Positions 1 through 4,078 of a DNA stretch of 4,078 nucleotides are shown here, piece by piece. Position numbers and translations under genes: made by a program. A model generated the notes under the pieces. That model was not told where the DNA came from. It saw only the letters and a program-made list of their open reading frames with translations, and did no database searches. The DNA is taken from the IMG/VR virus record IMGVR_UViG_2711768074_000019; one strand, given 5' to 3'. The stretch is from a virus (lineage: Duplodnaviria; Heunggongvirae; Uroviricota; Caudoviricetes). How positions within the stretch are numbered: position 1 is the first letter of the stretch; every line of letters begins with the position of its first letter.

Positions 1-83
1 TAGTCATGTGGGATGGCTGGTTCAGACTTCAGGATATGGTTGAGGGTTACCTGGTGATGAAGTCTCTTGATCAGGAGATCTGA
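1..83 (+). CDS. IS4-family (IS50-like) transposase, C-terminal fragment; the 5' part lies outside the window
   Basis: Seen: in-frame codons from position 3 translate to VMWDGWFRLQDMVEGYLVMKSLDQEI, then stop. Recalled Tn5 Tnp tail ALWEGWEALQSKLDGFLAAKDLMAQGIKI aligns without gaps (W-[DE]-G-W, LQ, [DE]-G-[FY]-L, K-x-L, terminal I). Identity is only about 40 percent by eye. Confidence 0.65.
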   Translation, partial: VMWDGWFRLQDMVEGYLVMKSLDQEI

Positions 84-92
84 TCAAGAGAC
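62..92. repeat. Palindrome inside the IS end (13-bp arms 62..74 and 80..92, 5-nt centre) carrying three GATC Dam sites
   Basis: Seen: gtctcttgatcag / gagat / ctgatcaagagac, with GATC at 69..72, 77..80 and 82..85. The same structure is mirrored at 3985..4015. Knowledge: the IS50 inside end is regulated by Dam methylation of GATC sites. Confidence 0.6.
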
Positions 93-182
93 AGCCGCAC
101 AGGGGGATTCACCATGCCAGTTTCTTTTAACAAACTCCCCGCAAAACAGACAACTGTCAACCGTCTGAATTGTGAGACATTT

Positions 183-206
183 AAAAAAAAGCCCGCAAAA
201 GCGAGC
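183..206 (-). terminator. Rho-independent terminator closing the minus-strand tRNA transcription unit
   Basis: Seen: the minus-strand RNA reads GCUCGC-UUUU-GCGGGC (6-bp stem with one G.U pair, from 206..191) followed by eight U (complement of A183..A190). Confidence 0.7.
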
Positions 207-221
207 CAGGGAAAATAAGTG

Positions 222-298
222 TGGCGCGTTGTACTGGATTCGAACCAGTGACCGATTGCTTAGAAGGCAATTGCTCTGTCCGGCTGAGCTAACAACGC
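222..298 (-). tRNA. argO: tRNA-Arg (anticodon UCU)
   Basis: Seen: the reverse complement folds as a cloverleaf with acceptor stem GCGTTGT/ACAACGC, T-loop GGTTCGAATCC, anticodon loop CU-UCU-AA and a 3' GCCA. It closely resembles E. coli argU by eye. The symbol is assigned from its position in an ileZ-argN-argO-like cluster, not from a search. Confidence 0.8.
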
Positions 299-311
299 AG
301 GATACAGATAA

Positions 312-388
312 TGGACCGCCTTCGGGGACCCGAACTCCGCGCAACCAGCTTCGAAGGCTGGCGCTCTTTCCTGATGAGATAATGGCGG
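312..388 (-). tRNA. argN: tRNA-Arg (anticodon UCG), with an atypical T-arm
   Basis: Seen: acceptor stem CCGCCAT/AAGGCGG (one A-A mismatch), anticodon stem-loop CCAGC-CTTCGAA-GCTGG and a 3' TCCA. The T-loop is TTCGGGT (G where A58 is normally conserved) and the T-stem has one mismatch. The symbol is assigned from cluster order only. Confidence 0.65.
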
Positions 389-395
389 TATGTGA

Positions 396-471
396 TGGTG
401 GCCCTTGCTGGATTTGAACCAGCGACCTGGCGATTATGAGTCGCTCGCTCTCACCACTGAGCTAAAGGGCC
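396..471 (-). tRNA. ileZ: tRNA-Ile2 (anticodon CAU, lysidine type); formally tRNA-Met cannot be excluded
   Basis: Seen: GGCCCTTTAGCTCAGTGGTGAGAGCGAGCGACTCATAATCGCCAGGTCGCTGGTTCAAATCCAGCAAGGGCCACCA, with a perfect 7-bp acceptor stem and anticodon CAT. It is near-identical in layout to E. coli ileX/ileY as recalled. It is the first gene of the Ile-Arg-Arg cluster. Confidence 0.8.
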
Positions 472-520: not shown

Positions 521-1570
521 TCAAACGATTAAATCCTGAACTTCCCTGACTGTCTGCTCAAAACGTCCGGTCTCCAGCTCAACACCAATCGCACGACGCC
601 CCAGTGCCATCGCCGCTTTTACCGTTGAACCCGACCCCATGAAAAAATCCGCAACCAGATCACCAGGACGACTACTTGCGCTGATTATCTGCTGCAGCAT
701 TTCTGCCGGTTTTTCGCACGGATGTTTCCCTGGATAGTACTGCACCGGTTTATACGTCCACACATCGGTGTACGGCACCTGCACCGTCACACCGAAATAC
801 CGCCGCAAATTTTTATATTCACTCAGCAGTTCCATATACTGCCGGTTCAGCTCACTGTATGTGCTGACCAGCTGGTGGTGTGGCTTTTCCAGTTCCCCGC
901 GCTGATGTTTCTCTTCTGCCACCCGGGCAAACAACGCCTGCAATTTGTTGTAATCACCCTCGTTCGGTAACTGCCACTGACTGGTACCAAACCAGTGCGA
1001 AGCCATGTTTTTCTTTCCGGTGGCTTCCGCTATCTGTTTTGACGTTATTCCCAGTGATTTACGCGCATCACGAAAGTAAGAAATCAGCGGGGCCATGACG
1101 TGCTGTTTTAGCTCGCGCCCCTGTGCCACATAGCCATCATCTTTCGGGCGATACGGTCCCTGATAATGTTCTGCAAACAGAATGCGCTCTGTTGCCGGAA
1201 AATACGCCCGCAGACTTTCCTTATTGCACCCGTTCCAGCGTCCGGACGGCTTCGCCCAGATAATGTGGTTCAGCACATTAAAGCGCTCACGCATCATGAT
1301 TTCGGTGTCAGATGCCAGGCGATGACCACAGAACAGGTAAAAACTTCCGGCAGGCTTCAGTACCCGCCAGAACTGCGCCAGACACTGGTCCAGCCATTTC
1401 AGGTAATCATCGTCGCCCTCCCACTGGTTATCCCAGCCCTCGGGCTTCACTTTAAAGTATGGCGGGTCTGTGACTATCAGATCGACAGAGTTTTCCGGTA
1501 AGGTCTGGATAAATTCCAGGCAATCAGCGTTGATTAACTCACAACTGGATATTTTTACAGTATTAGCCAT
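521..1570 (-). CDS. Beta-class DNA amino-methyltransferase (N6-adenine or N4-cytosine), orphan within this window
   Basis: Seen in the 349-aa ORF: N-terminal DLIVTDPPY (motif IV), HPCEKP, and C-terminal DLVADFFMGSGST (FxGxG AdoMet motif I). Motif IV before motif I is the beta-class order. The central region carries an HTH-like LGITSKQIAEATGK. No endonuclease gene is nearby. Confidence 0.85.
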   Translation of the reverse strand: MANTVKISSCELINADCLEFIQTLPENSVDLIVTDPPYFKVKPEGWDNQWEGDDDYLKWLDQCLAQFWRVLKPAGSFYLFCGHRLASDTEIMMRERFNVLNHIIWAKPSGRWNGCNKESLRAYFPATERILFAEHYQGPYRPKDDGYVAQGRELKQHVMAPLISYFRDARKSLGITSKQIAEATGKKNMASHWFGTSQWQLPNEGDYNKLQALFARVAEEKHQRGELEKPHHQLVSTYSELNRQYMELLSEYKNLRRYFGVTVQVPYTDVWTYKPVQYYPGKHPCEKPAEMLQQIISASSRPGDLVADFFMGSGSTVKAAMALGRRAIGVELETGRFEQTVREVQDLIV

Positions 1571-1711: not shown

Positions 1712-1733
1712 AAAAAACCTTCACTGAGGAAGG
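1712..1733 (-). terminator. Weak hairpin plus U-run overlapping the stop codon of the small HTH ORF; possible attenuator or weak terminator
   Basis: Seen: a 5-bp stem CCTTC/GAAGG (1718..1722 with 1729..1733) and a 6-nt loop. On the minus-strand RNA it is followed by six U (complement of A1712..A1717). The stem is short, so this is weak. Confidence 0.3.
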
Positions 1734-1918
1734 CGTCTGTAACAACCGAACTGATAATCTGCCAGACCCGCCATAACAAGCTGAGTCAGTATTAACTGGC
1801 AGCGTTCGCGTGAAAGGTAAGTATTCTGCGCAATTTCCCCGACGGTCGCCGGTTCGGTGACGCTTAATTCATTAAACACCACTCTGGCGGTTTCGGTCAT
1901 ATCCTGCTGTTTTAGCAT
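1721..1918 (-). CDS. Small hypothetical protein (65 aa) with a predicted helix-turn-helix
   Basis: Seen: internal ATG at 1918..1916 preceded by AAGGG about 8 nt upstream. Product MLKQQDMTETARVVFNELSVTEPATVGEIAQNTYLSRERCQLILTQLVMAGLADYQFGCYRRLPQ. The segment ATVGEIAQNTYLSRERCQLILTQL looks like an HTH; this is inference from the pattern. The longer track ORF (to 2041) starts at GTG directly against the terminator and is less plausible. Confidence 0.45.
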   Translation of the reverse strand: MLKQQDMTETARVVFNELSVTEPATVGEIAQNTYLSRERCQLILTQLVMAGLADYQFGCYRRLPQ

Positions 1919-2041: not shown

Positions 2042-2069
2042 AAAAAAACCCGCATAAAGCGGGTTCTTT
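2042..2069 (-). terminator. Strong intrinsic terminator (hairpin usable on both strands) about 85 nt downstream of the Q-like gene; tR'-like
   Basis: Seen: stem CCCGC/GCGGG (2049..2053 with 2059..2063, extendable by two A-T pairs) and loop ATAAA. The minus-strand RNA is followed by seven U (A2042..A2048); the plus strand is followed by TTCTTT. Confidence 0.75.
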
Positions 2070-2153
2070 CAGGTGTCCATGTCTGCTATTCGCCTCGCGG
2101 TATAGCTTTGCGAAGCGTAGCTGGATTGAAACAGTTTATGCGTAAAAAATCAA
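2070..2153 (-). promoter_or_regulatory. Candidate late promoter and Q-utilisation region (pR'-like) between the Q-like stop and the terminator
   Basis: Seen: a weak candidate -35 TTGATT (2153..2148, overlapping the stop codon), 17-bp spacer, -10 TTCAAT (2130..2125). This -10 lacks the conserved A at position 2. Placed mainly by analogy to the lambdoid Q-pR'-tR' layout. Confidence 0.3.
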
Positions 2154-2704
2154 GACATTTTTTGAGCAAACGATTCTCGCATAGGGATGTATAGCGCATA
2201 TTCAGCAACAGCCAACCAATTAGCAATTCGCTTTTCGCATGTACTAAAACACCATTCCGGGTGCACCTCATTCAACAATTCAGCCATTTTGCGTTTACTC
2301 ATCCCCCGCCCTTCGTATCTTTGCCGCAGGATATCAATCAATCCAGGATAACGTGCAAGCGCTTTACTTATCACCCCATCAATGCGTAACGCCTCTGCAT
2401 CAGTACAGTGAGACAACCAGCTCTTCTGTCTGCCAGCGATCATCTCTCGCAAGAATGCTTCCAGCTCTGGTTTATCAATCCCTGACTCCCTGATTCTACG
2501 CAGGGCTTCATTGATCGCGGTTTTTGTCAGTTTTTTGGATGTCAGCAACTGATTGAACATATTTCCTGGTTTGCCACCACCTATGTACGACCAACGCCCC
2601 CACATCCGTAATTTCCCCTGGATCCAGACGGCTTCCAGCGTTTTTAGACGTAAATGCTCGCCGCTTTTGCCTGTAATTTCCGGGTATATCATATTTACGA
2701 TCAC
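2150..2704 (-). CDS. Putative late-gene antiterminator Q-like protein
   Basis: Seen: a 184-aa ORF starting at GTG 2704..2702, which overlaps the RusA stop (GTGA); an alternative ATG lies at 2692..2690. It contains LRMWGRW, reminiscent of the L-x-R-W-G-x-W N-terminal motif I recall in phage 82-type Q. Synteny also fits: RusA then Q, as in DLP12 and phage 82, followed about 90 nt later by a strong terminator. No domain search was run. Confidence 0.5.
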   Translation of the reverse strand: MIVNMIYPEITGKSGEHLRLKTLEAVWIQGKLRMWGRWSYIGGGKPGNMFNQLLTSKKLTKTAINEALRRIRESGIDKPELEAFLREMIAGRQKSWLSHCTDAEALRIDGVISKALARYPGLIDILRQRYEGRGMSKRKMAELLNEVHPEWCFSTCEKRIANWLAVAEYALYIPMRESFAQKMS

Positions 2705-3060
2705 TCACTCTCAATTTTGTAAATCTTCACGCCCAGCCGCCCCCCAGGAACGAGCTGACCGCGCACAATATTAATTTCATCAAACTGCTCGTCGTCTATG
2801 AGAAGTCCGGCATGCGTCAGCGCATCCAGTGGTGCTTTCAGGATATTGTCCAGGTCACGACGACGCTTATCCGGTGGCTCTGCAATAATCTTTATCGCCA
2901 GCCGTCCGGACAGGTTTAATTTCAGCCGCTGCTCGCGAACAATTAGCGCCACATCCCGGCGATAACGCTCACCGGCTTTTGATACAAAATATGTGTTGTC
3001 ACGACGTCGCCAGTAGGTGTTCACCGTTGGCGGGTAAGGCAAAACAAACTCTATACGCAT
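2701..3060 (-). CDS. rusA: Holliday-junction resolvase RusA (crossover junction endodeoxyribonuclease)
   Basis: Seen: 119 aa with LPYPPTVNTYW, DKRRRDLDNILKAPLDALTHAGLLIDDEQ and GGRL, matching the RusA signature and its acidic catalytic residues. SD AAGAGG lies 6 nt upstream of ATG 3060..3058. Confidence 0.9.
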   Translation of the reverse strand: MRIEFVLPYPPTVNTYWRRRDNTYFVSKAGERYRRDVALIVREQRLKLNLSGRLAIKIIAEPPDKRRRDLDNILKAPLDALTHAGLLIDDEQFDEINIVRGQLVPGGRLGVKIYKIESE

Positions 3061-3072
3061 CAGTAACCTCTT

Positions 3073-3978
3073 TTACCCAAGCACGCCGGTTGCAAAGGCG
3101 TGATCAAGAAAATGAAAAATTAAATCAACCTGGGAACCATGCTTTTCTTCGAATGCCAGCGGATCCGCATGAAGCTCGTTGTGATGTTCCCGACACAGCG
3201 GTAGTGTGAAAATATCGTGGGATTTTGTTCCCATTCCACCCTGACCGTGGCCTATCAGGTGGTGGGCATCATCAGCAGGCTTTCCGCAACATGCGCACGG
3301 CTGCGTCTTAACCCAGCGCGTGTACTTTTCATTAACCCAGCGGCGACGTTTTGGGCGTAACATAAAAGACTCCGGCGACTCCGGATCCACTTTCAGCGCC
3401 AGCACCTTTTTCGCCTTATCCTGGATGATGCTGGTGGCAGGAACCGAAGGCACAAGGTCACTTTCCCGGGTAACAGACGGCACAACAGGCTTCGGTAATC
3501 TCAGTGCCTTACGGGCTGCACTTTCCGATAAGGCATCCGCCAGATCATTACGAATCAGCCACCAGCACAGTTCCGGCATTGTCACAACGTGACTGTCGTC
3601 AAAACCGAGCTCCCGACGCACAACAGACAACACCCAGCGGGCACAGTTATCCGTTGCCATTGATTCCAGCCGTTCCGTGAACTGATCGCGCAGCTGGTTA
3701 TCGCAGTGCCAGCACAGACGGATTGCGCCCGGAGCGTGTCGCATTGTGGTCATGTTCTCGCTGTGCCAGTTGGAATGAGGCCACTGACAGCCCTTTTCAC
3801 GAAGTAACCAGCTTTCAAGACATTCCACGCCACCAGCACGACGGATCACTGCCTCATTGCGGAACACGGCCCGAACGGCAGGATCATCCGCCAGCGGTTG
3901 TGATGCCGCCGGAACGGCACCACTGGCAAAAGATGAATAACGTTCCGGCTCAGGCTCCAGCAGGACACGCCCCTGCAT
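3073..3978 (-). CDS. DUF968 / YdfU-like prophage protein with a C-terminal HNH-like zinc-binding nuclease domain; possibly N-terminally truncated by the IS
   Basis: Seen: 301 aa. The C-terminus PCACCGKPADDAHHLIGHGQGGMGTKSHDIFTLPLCREHHNELH has the Cys/His spacing and G-x-GTK element of HNH-like prophage nucleases (compare DLP12 YbcO as recalled). The ATG at 3978..3976 is only 5 bp from the IS end. Confidence 0.55.
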   Translation of the reverse strand: MQGRVLLEPEPERYSSFASGAVPAASQPLADDPAVRAVFRNEAVIRRAGGVECLESWLLREKGCQWPHSNWHSENMTTMRHAPGAIRLCWHCDNQLRDQFTERLESMATDNCARWVLSVVRRELGFDDSHVVTMPELCWWLIRNDLADALSESAARKALRLPKPVVPSVTRESDLVPSVPATSIIQDKAKKVLALKVDPESPESFMLRPKRRRWVNEKYTRWVKTQPCACCGKPADDAHHLIGHGQGGMGTKSHDIFTLPLCREHHNELHADPLAFEEKHGSQVDLIFHFLDHAFATGVLG

Positions 3979-3982
3979 AAAC

Positions 3983-4078
3983 CTGTCTCTTGATCAGATC
4001 TCCTGATCAAGAGACTTCATCACCAGGTAACCCTCAACCATATCCTGAAGTCTGAACCAGCCATCCCACATGACTACC
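3983..4078 (-). mobile_element. Second, inverted copy of the IS50-like inner end; transposase on the minus strand, again reading towards the cargo
   Basis: Seen: 3983..4076 is the exact reverse complement of 1..94. It begins CTGTCTCTTGATCAGATCT at 3983..4001 and runs off the window edge. Confidence 0.75.
3994..4078 (-). CDS. IS4-family (IS50-like) transposase, C-terminal fragment (second copy)
   Basis: Mirror image of feature 1..83, with stop codon TGA at 3996..3994 on the minus strand. Confidence 0.65.
   Translation of the reverse strand, partial: VVMWDGWFRLQDMVEGYLVMKSLDQEI

Follow-up and report, generated by a model that had tools for sequence, protein, structure and literature searches.

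A methyltransferase of the M.EcoGII/M.EcoGI family in the slot behind Q of an ISEc13-bracketed lambdoid prophage segment

The stretch of DNA analysed here, 4,078 nucleotides in its entirety and called the window below, carries on its minus strand a methyltransferase gene which, as judged by sequence comparison, is a member of the M.EcoGII/M.EcoGI family; the family is already published and the gene is not new. In the explanation that best fits the evidence, the product is very probably an orphan enzyme of this family which methylates adenine in essentially any sequence context, and its gene a late gene switched by the antiterminator Q, carried here by a probably defective prophage. The features of the window are the following.

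1..94, plus strand: 3' end of an ISEc13 (IS4 family) copy, its terminus abutting position 94/95
190..207, minus strand: terminator-like hairpin and T-run after the tRNA cluster (-11.4 kcal/mol, z -2.7)
222..471, minus strand: tRNA cluster, with a CAT anticodon (annotated tRNA-Ile, ileZ type), Arg-TCG and Arg-TCT; ARAGORN and Rfam tRNA matches
521..1570, minus strand: M.EcoGII-family beta-class N6-adenine DNA methyltransferase, 349 aa, intact; Pfam PF01555
643-629, minus strand, residues 310-314 of the methyltransferase: FMGSG (FxGxG, motif I)
1051-989, minus strand, residues 174-194 of the methyltransferase: HTH-like stretch GITSKQIAEATGKKNMASHWF in the target-recognition domain (TRD)
1468-1457, minus strand, residues 35-38 of the methyltransferase: DPPY (motif IV)
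1721..1918, minus strand: conserved small ORF of 65 aa (phrog_331, E 1.4e-37), probably a winged helix
2040..2068, minus strand: strong intrinsic terminator, stem AACCCGC / GCGGGTT and then U7
2150..2692, minus strand: Q-family late antiterminator of the DUF1133 type, 180 aa from the annotated ATG
2701..3060, minus strand: RusA Holliday-junction resolvase, an upstream nin-region gene (Pfam RusA, E 5.4e-15)
3073..3978, minus strand: DUF968 / HNH-like nin-region gene, 5'-truncated (Pfam DUF968, E 7.4e-78)
3983..4076, minus strand: 3' end of a second ISEc13 copy, inverted, within the DUF968 gene; inverted repeat with 1-94

The methyltransferase reading frame matches the Pfam family N6_N4_Mtase (PF01555) with an E-value of 8.7e-45 and 153.8 bits, the cut-off being 26.7, and the match spans residues 29-340 of the protein and positions 1-219 of the 221 of the profile. 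A PADLOC Type II methyltransferase model is also matched from end to end (E 9.3e-161). Motif IV comes first, followed by the TRD and then by motif I, which is the beta-class (circularly permuted) order. The preliminary description of this DNA, made from its letters, had proposed an orphan beta-class methyltransferase with DPPY towards the N-terminus, FxGxG towards the C-terminus and an HTH-like stretch between them, and the profile match and the positions of the motifs agree with it on each of these points.

An AlphaFold2 model of the protein is of moderate quality (mean pLDDT 68), because the underlying alignment is shallow and consists of closely related sequences. The Rossmann core of the model matches M.BceJIV, CcrM, MboIIA, RsrI and HpyAVI (Foldseek E 6e-14 to 1e-8), and the predicted fold is the Rossmann type of the solved beta-class members. 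Sequence matches in the PDB cover only the two core segments, and the solved enzymes M.BceJIV, CcrM, M.MboIIA and M.RsrI, with Foldseek E between 1e-13 and 1e-10, are 18-21% identical to the window enzyme. The model has a helical domain at residues 147-254, composed of helices 147-173, 177-184, 190-194, 204-224 and 231-254, with pLDDT of 65-83 across residues 160-240. PMC11551740 describes the TRD of M.EcoGII as a four-helix bundle that contains an HTH and is connected to the core through long charged linkers; no solved methyltransferase structure is reported to have a counterpart of this recognition domain or of the charged linker. On the strength of that description and of the predicted model, the HTH that had been taken for an internal insert is the normal target-recognition domain of the family.

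M.EcoGII (GenBank EGT69837.1), a characterised prophage enzyme of E. coli O104:H4, and M.EcoGI, both from strain C227-11, are beta-class N6-adenine methyltransferases without sequence specificity (Murray et al. 2018, PMC5778455); they are identical at 333 of 349 positions and both methylate every A residue (PMC5778455). Kinship with enzymes of this type had been suggested for checking by alignment, and it is close. The window protein is identical at 327 of 349 positions (93.7%), at equal length, to an M.EcoGII allele found in an IMG/VR locus (L048). The M.EcoGII sequence itself was available as a machine-read table in the supplement of PMC11551740, to which 321 of 350 positions are identical; its scanning errors were corrected against the L048 allele, which differs from the printed M.EcoGII at two real positions besides likely scanning errors. 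Like the window protein, M.EcoGII is 349 aa long (PMC5778455), and both M.EcoGII and M.EcoGI share with it the length, an identity of about 93-94%, the order from DPPY through an HTH-containing recognition domain to FxGxG, and the orphan state, i.e. no accompanying endonuclease. Identity reaches 347 of 349 positions for the protein of a prophage in E. coli O55:H7 RM12579 and is 84% and 70% for the reconstructed ancestors Anc291 and SUPREM, respectively. All the residues that are invariant across 39 aligned family members, drawn from E. coli, Shigella, Citrobacter, Salmonella, Klebsiella, Enterobacter, Kosakonia, Pantoea, Erwinia and related genera of Enterobacterales, are present in the window protein. 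Annotated genes nearly identical to this one occur in thousands of E. coli genomes and also in well-known phages, SfV and phiP27 among them.

For the window enzyme, methylation of adenine without sequence specificity is the strong default, because the protein, about 94% identical to M.EcoGII, lies within a clade whose tested members (M.EcoGI, M.EcoGII, Anc291 and SUPREM) are all non-site-specific; in this respect the earlier view that the sequence does not reveal the specificity of the enzyme was too cautious. Homologues in O111, with an identity of 92-94%, are given as non-specific, and they are silent in lysogens (PMC6602927). The 22 differences from the L048 allele are, however, unevenly distributed: 16 of them cluster in residues 145-212, that is in the linker and recognition domain, and the TRD is identical at 66 of 78 positions as against 90 of 90 in the C-terminal core. 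A changed preference of the window allele is therefore formally conceivable, and with it a sequence-specific orphan methyltransferase, in which the substitutions in the recognition domain would give a defined motif and the enzyme would serve as a site-specific anti-restriction or epigenetic factor. M.PflMI (CCANNNNNTGG), which PMC11551740 names as the closest relative with site specificity, has the beta-class Rossmann core in common with the window enzyme and a similar predicted overall structure (PMC11551740), and the RefSeq cluster bears the name "site-specific DNA-methyltransferase", which is a generic label and not a test. But M.EcoGI and M.EcoGII are both non-specific despite their 16 differing positions, and nanopore mapping of Anc291 and SUPREM, carried out on RNA, gave no sequence motif (PMC11551740). 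The HTH core and its flanking residues are invariant across the 39 aligned members, and the TRD of the window protein is nearer to the family consensus (63 of 67 defined positions) than that of M.EcoGII (59 of 67). M.PflMI, M.BceJIV, CcrM, M.MboIIA and M.RsrI, unlike the M.EcoGII family, are sequence-specific, and several of them belong to restriction-modification systems or to cell-cycle control. We consider it very unlikely that the window enzyme recognizes a defined site.

The surroundings of the gene bear on whether it could be the methyltransferase half of a restriction-modification system with its endonuclease lying outside the window. PADLOC does place the protein under Type II methyltransferase models, and the upstream DUF968 protein has a weak HNH-like match; the DUF968 product, however, is not a cognate restriction enzyme, being encoded by a common early-operon nin gene that is found also in prophages devoid of the methyltransferase, such as that of E2348/69. 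Profile searches with Pfam, PHROG and PADLOC find no restriction endonuclease in the window, as had been noted from its open reading frames. The preliminary description had pointed to a cognate endonuclease just outside the window as evidence against an orphan; there is none within 9 kb on either side in the RM12579 prophage, a lambdoid element to which the core of the window is 99.9% identical, and none at the loci of SfV, mEp460, phiP27, Stx2a_1447 and L048. A single locus among 80 species-level genomes has an adjoining system, of the BsuBI/PstI type, which is unrelated, and the neighbours in these genomes are otherwise Q proteins and lysis genes. Finally, there can be no cognate sequence-specific partner for a methyltransferase that is itself non-specific. 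A restriction-modification origin is thus extremely improbable.

The gene order is instead that of a late-region cassette. In the RM12579 prophage Q is followed by the strong intrinsic terminator, the 65-aa ORF, the methyltransferase, three tRNAs, an esterase, a holin and a lysozyme, and the layout in SfV, mEp460, phiP27, Stx2a_1447 and L048 matches it. Among the 80 species-level genomes, at least 46 of 63 cases have a Q-family antiterminator as the nearest large ORF upstream, and 42 of 77 have a holin as the first ORF downstream of the methyltransferase. Throughout Enterobacterales the cassette keeps consistently to one slot, with the Q terminator on one side and the lysis genes on the other. 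The same slot also collects stx, tRNAs, Tad2-like proteins and a kinase/phosphatase pair. The "DNA methylase" of SfV (orf48), phiP27 (L24), mEp460, cdtI, 1720a-02 and Stx2a phages of the WGPS2/1447 type is 81-92% identical to the window enzyme at the protein level, and cassettes of the SfV/phiP27 type have, like the window, Q, an annotated terminator, the small ORF and the methyltransferase, followed in those phages either directly by lysis genes or by tRNAs, stx and lysis genes. At L048, too, the gene lies between a Q gene on one side and three tRNAs and lysis genes on the other, with the 65-aa ORF upstream; the Q gene there is of the PF03589 type, as against the DUF1133 type in the window. 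SfV, phiP27, mEp460, cdtI, 1720a-02 and the Stx2a phages are complete and inducible, whereas the cassette in the window is a fragment between two IS copies and has nothing in the stx slot.

The Q gene product matches Pfam DUF1133 with an E-value of 1e-102 and Phage_antitermQ with 28.1 bits (cut-off 26), as well as PHROG 753, "anti-termination protein Q-like" (E 8e-78). The intrinsic terminator lies 82-110 nt downstream of its stop codon and folds with -22.2 kcal/mol (z -6.6), a stability reached by none of 200 shuffled sequences; a terminator is annotated at the equivalent site in phage SfV, and homology to loci with other Q types stops at 2047-2065, within the hairpin. The methyltransferase gene follows both elements, on the same strand as the lysis genes and upstream of them, so that its placement downstream of a Q/terminator module, already proposed, is confirmed here and in the gene order of RM12579, SfV and phiP27. 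The tRNA cluster is directly downstream, as in Stx phages; the Ile/Arg/Arg naming is taken from the annotation of RM12579 and Stx2a_1447. Q, the terminator and the methyltransferase hold as elements of the preliminary description, which had missed the ISEc13 bracketing and the 65-aa ORF lying downstream of the terminator and upstream of the methyltransferase.

In Q-controlled phages the late promoter is constitutive, the transcript stops at tR' in lysogens and Q gives read-through (PMC7547250). The terminator of the window would be a tR'-like element, to be read through by the Q-modified polymerase. A consensus scan found no late promoter between Q and the terminator; by eye, a weak candidate consists of TTGATT (2153-2148), a 17-nt spacer ending in TG at 2133-2132 (extended -10) and TTCAAT (2130-2125). 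Other candidate elements were discarded: Rfam gives only sub-threshold matches in the leader between Q and the methyltransferase (isrK, 21.6 bits against a gathering score of 50, mainly over the terminator hairpin), the hairpin 1734-1717 at the end of the small ORF behaves like shuffled sequence (z -0.8), and a terminator-like hairpin at 1372-1345 within the methyltransferase coding sequence is marginal (z -2.0). M.EcoGII is silent in lysogens and toxic under constitutive expression (PMC5778455; PMC12707154), and both properties are consistent with the place of the window gene behind a strong terminator.

About 150 nt separate the end of the 65-aa ORF from the start of the methyltransferase downstream of it, and across genera the distance is 76-154 nt. 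The counterparts of the ORF are orf47 of SfV and L23 of phiP27, the latter labelled a TrmB-family regulator in RefSeq, and its match to Pfam TrmB is weak (E 0.005, below the cut-off). From this match, the RefSeq naming and the sequence pattern, the protein is probably a winged helix; against PDB sequences its profile gives only marginal and inconsistent matches (a repeat protein at E 4e-4, a putative DNA-binding protein at 0.019 and EutK at 0.45). The ORF is upstream of the methyltransferase in every IMG/VR locus that reaches that far, and a homologue is detectable in 57 of 78 species-level loci, at 37-98% identity, the most distant being those of Rosenbergiella (37%) and of Xenorhabdus and Photorhabdus (39%).

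This conservation, down to 37% identity, favours an enzyme that would act mainly on RNA, or a two-subunit enzyme in which the 65-aa protein would redirect or restrain the methyltransferase, towards rRNA, tRNA, phage transcripts or phage DNA only. M.EcoGII methylates RNA and DNA:RNA hybrids in vitro (PMC5778455; PMC11551740). There is also a possible precedent in M.EcoPA8orf6770P-PNB-2, the 16S rRNA methyltransferase of an Stx2a phage, where a small wHTH partner, PNB-2, directs a different methyltransferase to 16S rRNA (PMC10810198); as in the window, a prophage methyltransferase has a small winged-helix protein encoded immediately upstream. Unlike the window enzyme, that methyltransferase belongs to the MT-A70 fold family, lies in another genomic region and is reported to be induced as stationary phase approaches (PMC10810198), and the parallel is therefore an analogy only. 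The two enzymes are not the same: identity of the window enzyme with the Stx-phage rRNA methyltransferase of Gong et al. is ruled out by the MT-A70 family of the latter and its location elsewhere in the phage. Furthermore, M.EcoGII alone is fully active and non-specific on DNA, methylating about 85-90% of adenines (PMC11551740), and thus no partner is required for catalysis; 21 of the 78 loci lack a detectable homologue of the 65-aa ORF, and the profile of the ORF matches solved structures only marginally. An enzyme directed mainly to RNA or dependent on a second subunit is very unlikely.

More broadly, the 65-aa protein might be a functional partner of the M.EcoGII-family methyltransferases, either as a controller that sets the time or limits the level of expression of a toxic enzyme or as a subunit that restricts or redirects a non-specific catalytic core in vivo, a proposal that we put forward tentatively and regard as unlikely. 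If it were true, the "non-specific orphan" behaviour of the gene cloned alone would misrepresent the enzyme as it is during phage growth. M.EcoGII is widely used as a reagent for chromatin and RNA footprinting, and a partner modulating its activity in nature, a speculative idea, would have practical interest.

The condition of the prophage is indicated by the two ends of the window. Positions 1-94 and 3983-4076 form a perfect 94-nt inverted repeat, each arm of which matches the end of the transposase gene region of ISEc13 with 100% identity, and the left junction is identical to one in the E2348/69 prophage, which keeps the DUF968 gene and is without the methyltransferase. The right junction, in the DUF968 gene, was found in none of 5,426 complete E. 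coli genomes. The DUF968 copy of RM12579 is 990 nt long and reaches 81 nt beyond window position 3982, the window copy being truncated at its 5' end by the right-hand ISEc13. A reading of the termini as IS50-like inside ends, left by cloning or tagmentation, was rejected, because ISEc13 has the sequence of the 94-nt arms as its natural 3' end and E2348/69 carries the left junction as well. With two inverted copies of ISEc13, one of which truncates an upstream gene, the prophage is probably defective. The copy inserted in the DUF968 gene, with rusA and Q downstream of it, probably keeps early transcripts from extending as far as Q; given the bracketing, late induction in the source genome is doubtful, and the methyltransferase gene, isolated on its segment by an insertion at either end, is probably carried silently by a defective prophage.

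For an intact cassette, the function proposed here would proceed as follows. The methyltransferase gene, which by gene order is in the first stretch of the late operon, behind Q and the strong intrinsic terminator, would stay unexpressed during lysogeny, its transcription depending on Q to let the polymerase read through; this position would avoid the toxicity of genome-wide methylation. From what is described for the family, the split Rossmann core (about residues 1-134 and 260-349), which carries DPPY and FxGxG, would use AdoMet and flip the target adenine into its active site, and the four-helix-bundle domain with the HTH (about 160-237) would provide, together with the charged linker, a grip on nucleic acid that is not base-specific. 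Replicating and packaged phage DNA would become heavily m6A-methylated and so enter its next host protected against many restriction systems. The likely role of the gene, which Q would switch on, is the methylation of progeny DNA, with a timing suggested by gene order.

Earlier publications already cover the family, the absence of specificity, the recognition domain with its HTH, the location in prophages and the silence in lysogens, so that the window carries little weight as a discovery and its value is in confirmation and context. The context added is that the slot of the cassette is constant across Enterobacterales and that a small, probably winged-helix, gene usually travels with it.

All genes of the window are carried by the minus strand, in the following order:

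3978-3073, minus strand, DUF968/HNH-like gene
3060-2701, minus strand, rusA
2692-2150, minus strand, Q-family antiterminator of DUF1133 type
2068-2040, minus strand, strong intrinsic terminator (hairpin plus U7, from folding energy)
1918-1721, minus strand, 65-aa ORF (phrog_331)
1570-521, minus strand, 349-aa methyltransferase ORF (Pfam N6_N4_Mtase)
471-222, minus strand, three tRNA genes

Between its two IS ends the window has 3,888 bases, and these share 99.9% identity with a lambdoid prophage in E. coli O55:H7 RM12579. That prophage carries replication and immunity genes on the upstream side; past the tRNAs it has genes for a carbohydrate esterase, a holin, a lysozyme, a lysis protein and terminase. 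The preliminary description had seen no restriction endonuclease in the window; none is encoded there, and none is found in the natural flanks provided by the RM12579 prophage. The first tRNA (396-471) is Met-CAT according to ARAGORN and tRNA-Ile (ileZ type) in record annotations. The middle one (312-388, minus strand, Arg anticodon TCG) reaches only 33.8 bits with the Rfam tRNA model, compared with 70-72 bits for both neighbours, and may be atypical or decaying.

The assignment of the ORF at 521-1570 to the beta-class methyltransferases holds: Pfam N6_N4_Mtase matches the protein with an E value of 8.7e-45, DPPY (residues 35-38) is N-terminal and FMGSG (residues 310-314) is C-terminal. An AlphaFold2 model, built on an alignment of 39 homologues and of moderate confidence (mean pLDDT 68), has a Rossmann core split in two, with a helical domain in the middle. 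Its core matches the solved beta-class enzymes M.BceJIV, CcrM, MboIIA, RsrI and HpyAVI in Foldseek (E 1e-13 to 1e-8), and PDB sequence matches are confined to two core segments. The HTH-like stretch, GITSKQIAEATGKKNMASHWF, is indeed present at residues 174-194, and the model places a helix-turn-helix (short helices 177-184 and 190-194) within the middle domain; it is not, however, an insert, as had been proposed, but the normal, already described recognition domain of the M.EcoGII family. This segment is highly conserved among the 39 aligned homologues, which come from Enterobacterales genera.

M.EcoGII had been cited beforehand as a general example; by its sequence, the window protein is a close allele of it. 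Murray et al. (PMC5778455) describe M.EcoGII as a prophage-borne, adenine non-specific beta-class enzyme of 349 aa with a central recognition domain, identical to M.EcoGI at 333 of 349 positions, and point out that phage 1720a-02, also among our DNA matches, encodes a very similar one. Against the M.EcoGII sequence that Ochiai et al. print in their supplement, identity is 92%, scanning errors included. A near-identical M.EcoGII allele at IMG/VR locus L048, which differs from the printed sequence by two real differences plus likely scanning errors, shares 327 of 349 residues (93.7%) with the window protein; the RM12579 copy differs from the latter by two residues. Identity is 84% to Anc291 and 70% to SUPREM, two reconstructed ancestors of the family.

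The differences from the M.EcoGII allele are concentrated in residues 145-212 (16 of 22), with 66/78 identical positions in the target-recognition domain (TRD) and 90/90 in the C-terminal core. One might suppose that the window protein has acquired a sequence preference; at the 67 defined TRD positions it is closer to the family consensus than M.EcoGII itself (63/67 against 59/67), and we consider such an acquired preference highly improbable. M.EcoGI and M.EcoGII are both non-specific (PMC5778455); for Anc291 and SUPREM, nanopore mapping of RNA gave no sequence motif (PMC11551740). O111 homologues of 92-94% identity are catalogued as non-specific, with lysogen methylomes lacking a signal (PMC6602927). 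The window protein would thus very probably methylate adenine non-specifically.

The same slot is occupied in other phages. The annotation of SfV reads Q, "putative rho-independent terminator", orf47, orf48 methyltransferase, terminator, S, R and Rz, and mEp460 has the same layout; phiP27 carries L23, L24, ileZ, argO, stx2e and holin, and Stx2a_1447 has the cassette of the window followed by stx2AB. Locus L048 shows RusA, Q, the small ORF, methyltransferase, three tRNAs, holin, DUF1327, lysozyme and Rz, its Q being of PF03589 type whereas that of the window is of DUF1133 type. Scanning one genome per species gave 80 loci, from Escherichia to Xenorhabdus, Photorhabdus, Providencia and Serratia, with methyltransferases 63-91% identical. 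In at least 46 of 63 cases, the closest large ORF upstream falls into one of four Pfam families of Q antiterminators; holin is the first downstream ORF in 42 of 77, and the second is most often lysozyme or holin.

Between methyltransferase and lysis genes, where E. coli has tRNAs and stx, other genera hold other accessory genes. Xenorhabdus loci encode Tad2-like proteins (Thoeris anti-defence domain), fused to DUF7823 in L142:7174-7950 and L143:7191-8036 and with a PARP-like repeat match in its place in L160:7197-8177; a Providencia locus (L162:7186-7932) encodes a Ser/Thr protein kinase. A PP2C phosphatase occurs among the second downstream ORFs, and an Acb2/Tad1-like gene in one locus. In the window, the 90-nt stretch 95-184, which separates the IS end from the post-tRNA hairpin, is common to RM12579, O111:H2 strain 12A and E2348/69 and is missing from the Stx-phage matches, whose homology starts near position 184; it marks the stx/moron insertion point, left empty in this prophage type.

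The 65-aa ORF between terminator and methyltransferase, overlooked previously, belongs to phrog_331 (E 1.4e-37) and corresponds to SfV orf47 and phiP27 L23. It has a weak, sub-threshold Pfam match to the TrmB winged helix, and RefSeq names the phiP27 homologue a TrmB-family regulator. All viral loci that extend far enough have it before the methyltransferase, at 95-100% identity and with any Q type. At species level a homologue is present at 57 of 78 loci (lowest identity 37% in Rosenbergiella, 39% in Xenorhabdus and Photorhabdus) and was not detected at the other 21; about 150 nt separate it from the methyltransferase start in Enterobacteriaceae, and 76-101 nt in Xenorhabdus and Photorhabdus. 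The available text of the M.EcoGII papers (PMC5778455, PMC11551740) does not discuss this ORF and reports M.EcoGII as active alone in vitro, so the 65-aa protein is not needed for catalysis. In an MT-A70-family methyltransferase of Stx phages, a small winged-helix partner encoded upstream redirects the enzyme to 16S rRNA (PMC10810198); the likeness is one of analogy, not homology, and a role of the 65-aa protein as partner or controller of the methyltransferase seems rather unlikely.

The placement of the gene downstream of a Q/terminator module was correctly recognized. The hairpin and U7 lie 82-110 nt past the Q stop codon, and the hairpin (-22.2 kcal/mol, z -6.6) is matched by none of 200 shuffles. 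When the Q-to-methyltransferase interval was compared with 80 viral loci carrying the same methyltransferase, homology continued through the Q gene at loci with a DUF1133-type Q and stopped at window 2047-2065, within the hairpin, where the Q was of another type. Q, together with its presumed promoter, thus forms a module separate from the downstream cassette; as judged from these alignments, the terminator is where the two join, and it doubles as the recombination boundary that separates sequence specific to the Q type from the conserved small-ORF/methyltransferase cassette. The promoter scan returned no promoter between Q and terminator; a weak extended -10 candidate was read by eye (TTGATT 2153-2148, a 17-nt spacer ending in TG 2133-2132, TTCAAT 2130-2125). 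A sub-threshold Rfam isrK match over 2043-2116 (21.6 bits, gathering score 50) is a hint, not evidence, of a short promoter-to-terminator RNA like StxS or lambda 6S.

The late promoter of Stx phages is constitutively active; in lysogens its transcript ends at tR', and with Q transcription reads on into stx and the lysis genes (PMC7547250). By its position, the methyltransferase would obey the same rule, and gene order suggests late expression. This fits the silence in lysogens and the toxicity on expression that are reported for M.EcoGII (PMC5778455, PMC12707154).

This copy is probably an exception. A perfect 94-nt inverted repeat (1-94 with 3983-4076) corresponds to the 3' terminus of ISEc13, an element of the IS4 family, and its inner 19 nt resemble the IS50 inside end. 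Two inverted ISEc13 copies with the same end inward around a prophage segment resemble a composite transposon. The left junction recurs unchanged in an EPEC E2348/69 prophage that has no methyltransferase; at the right one, absent from all 5,426 complete E. coli genomes in the search, the DUF968 gene loses 81 nt of its 5' end. A decaying prophage, assembled as a contig ending in repeats, is the more economical reading. With one IS lying between the early operon and Q, expression of Q would probably be prevented, and the second IS separates the methyltransferase cassette from the lysis genes; the enzyme, though intact, is thus probably not inducible here.

Distant methyltransferase homologues (50-61% identity, phage records H141-H159) are encoded by three linear-plasmid phages, N15 (gp52), PY54 and phiKO2, and by phages of Vibrio and Aeromonas such as VHML and phiO18P; among the matches listed for the small ORF (40 of 57 records), none comes from these phages. 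The preliminary description was essentially right: the window holds a member of an already characterised family at its usual place, and these distant homologues indicate that the family reaches well beyond lambdoid prophages.
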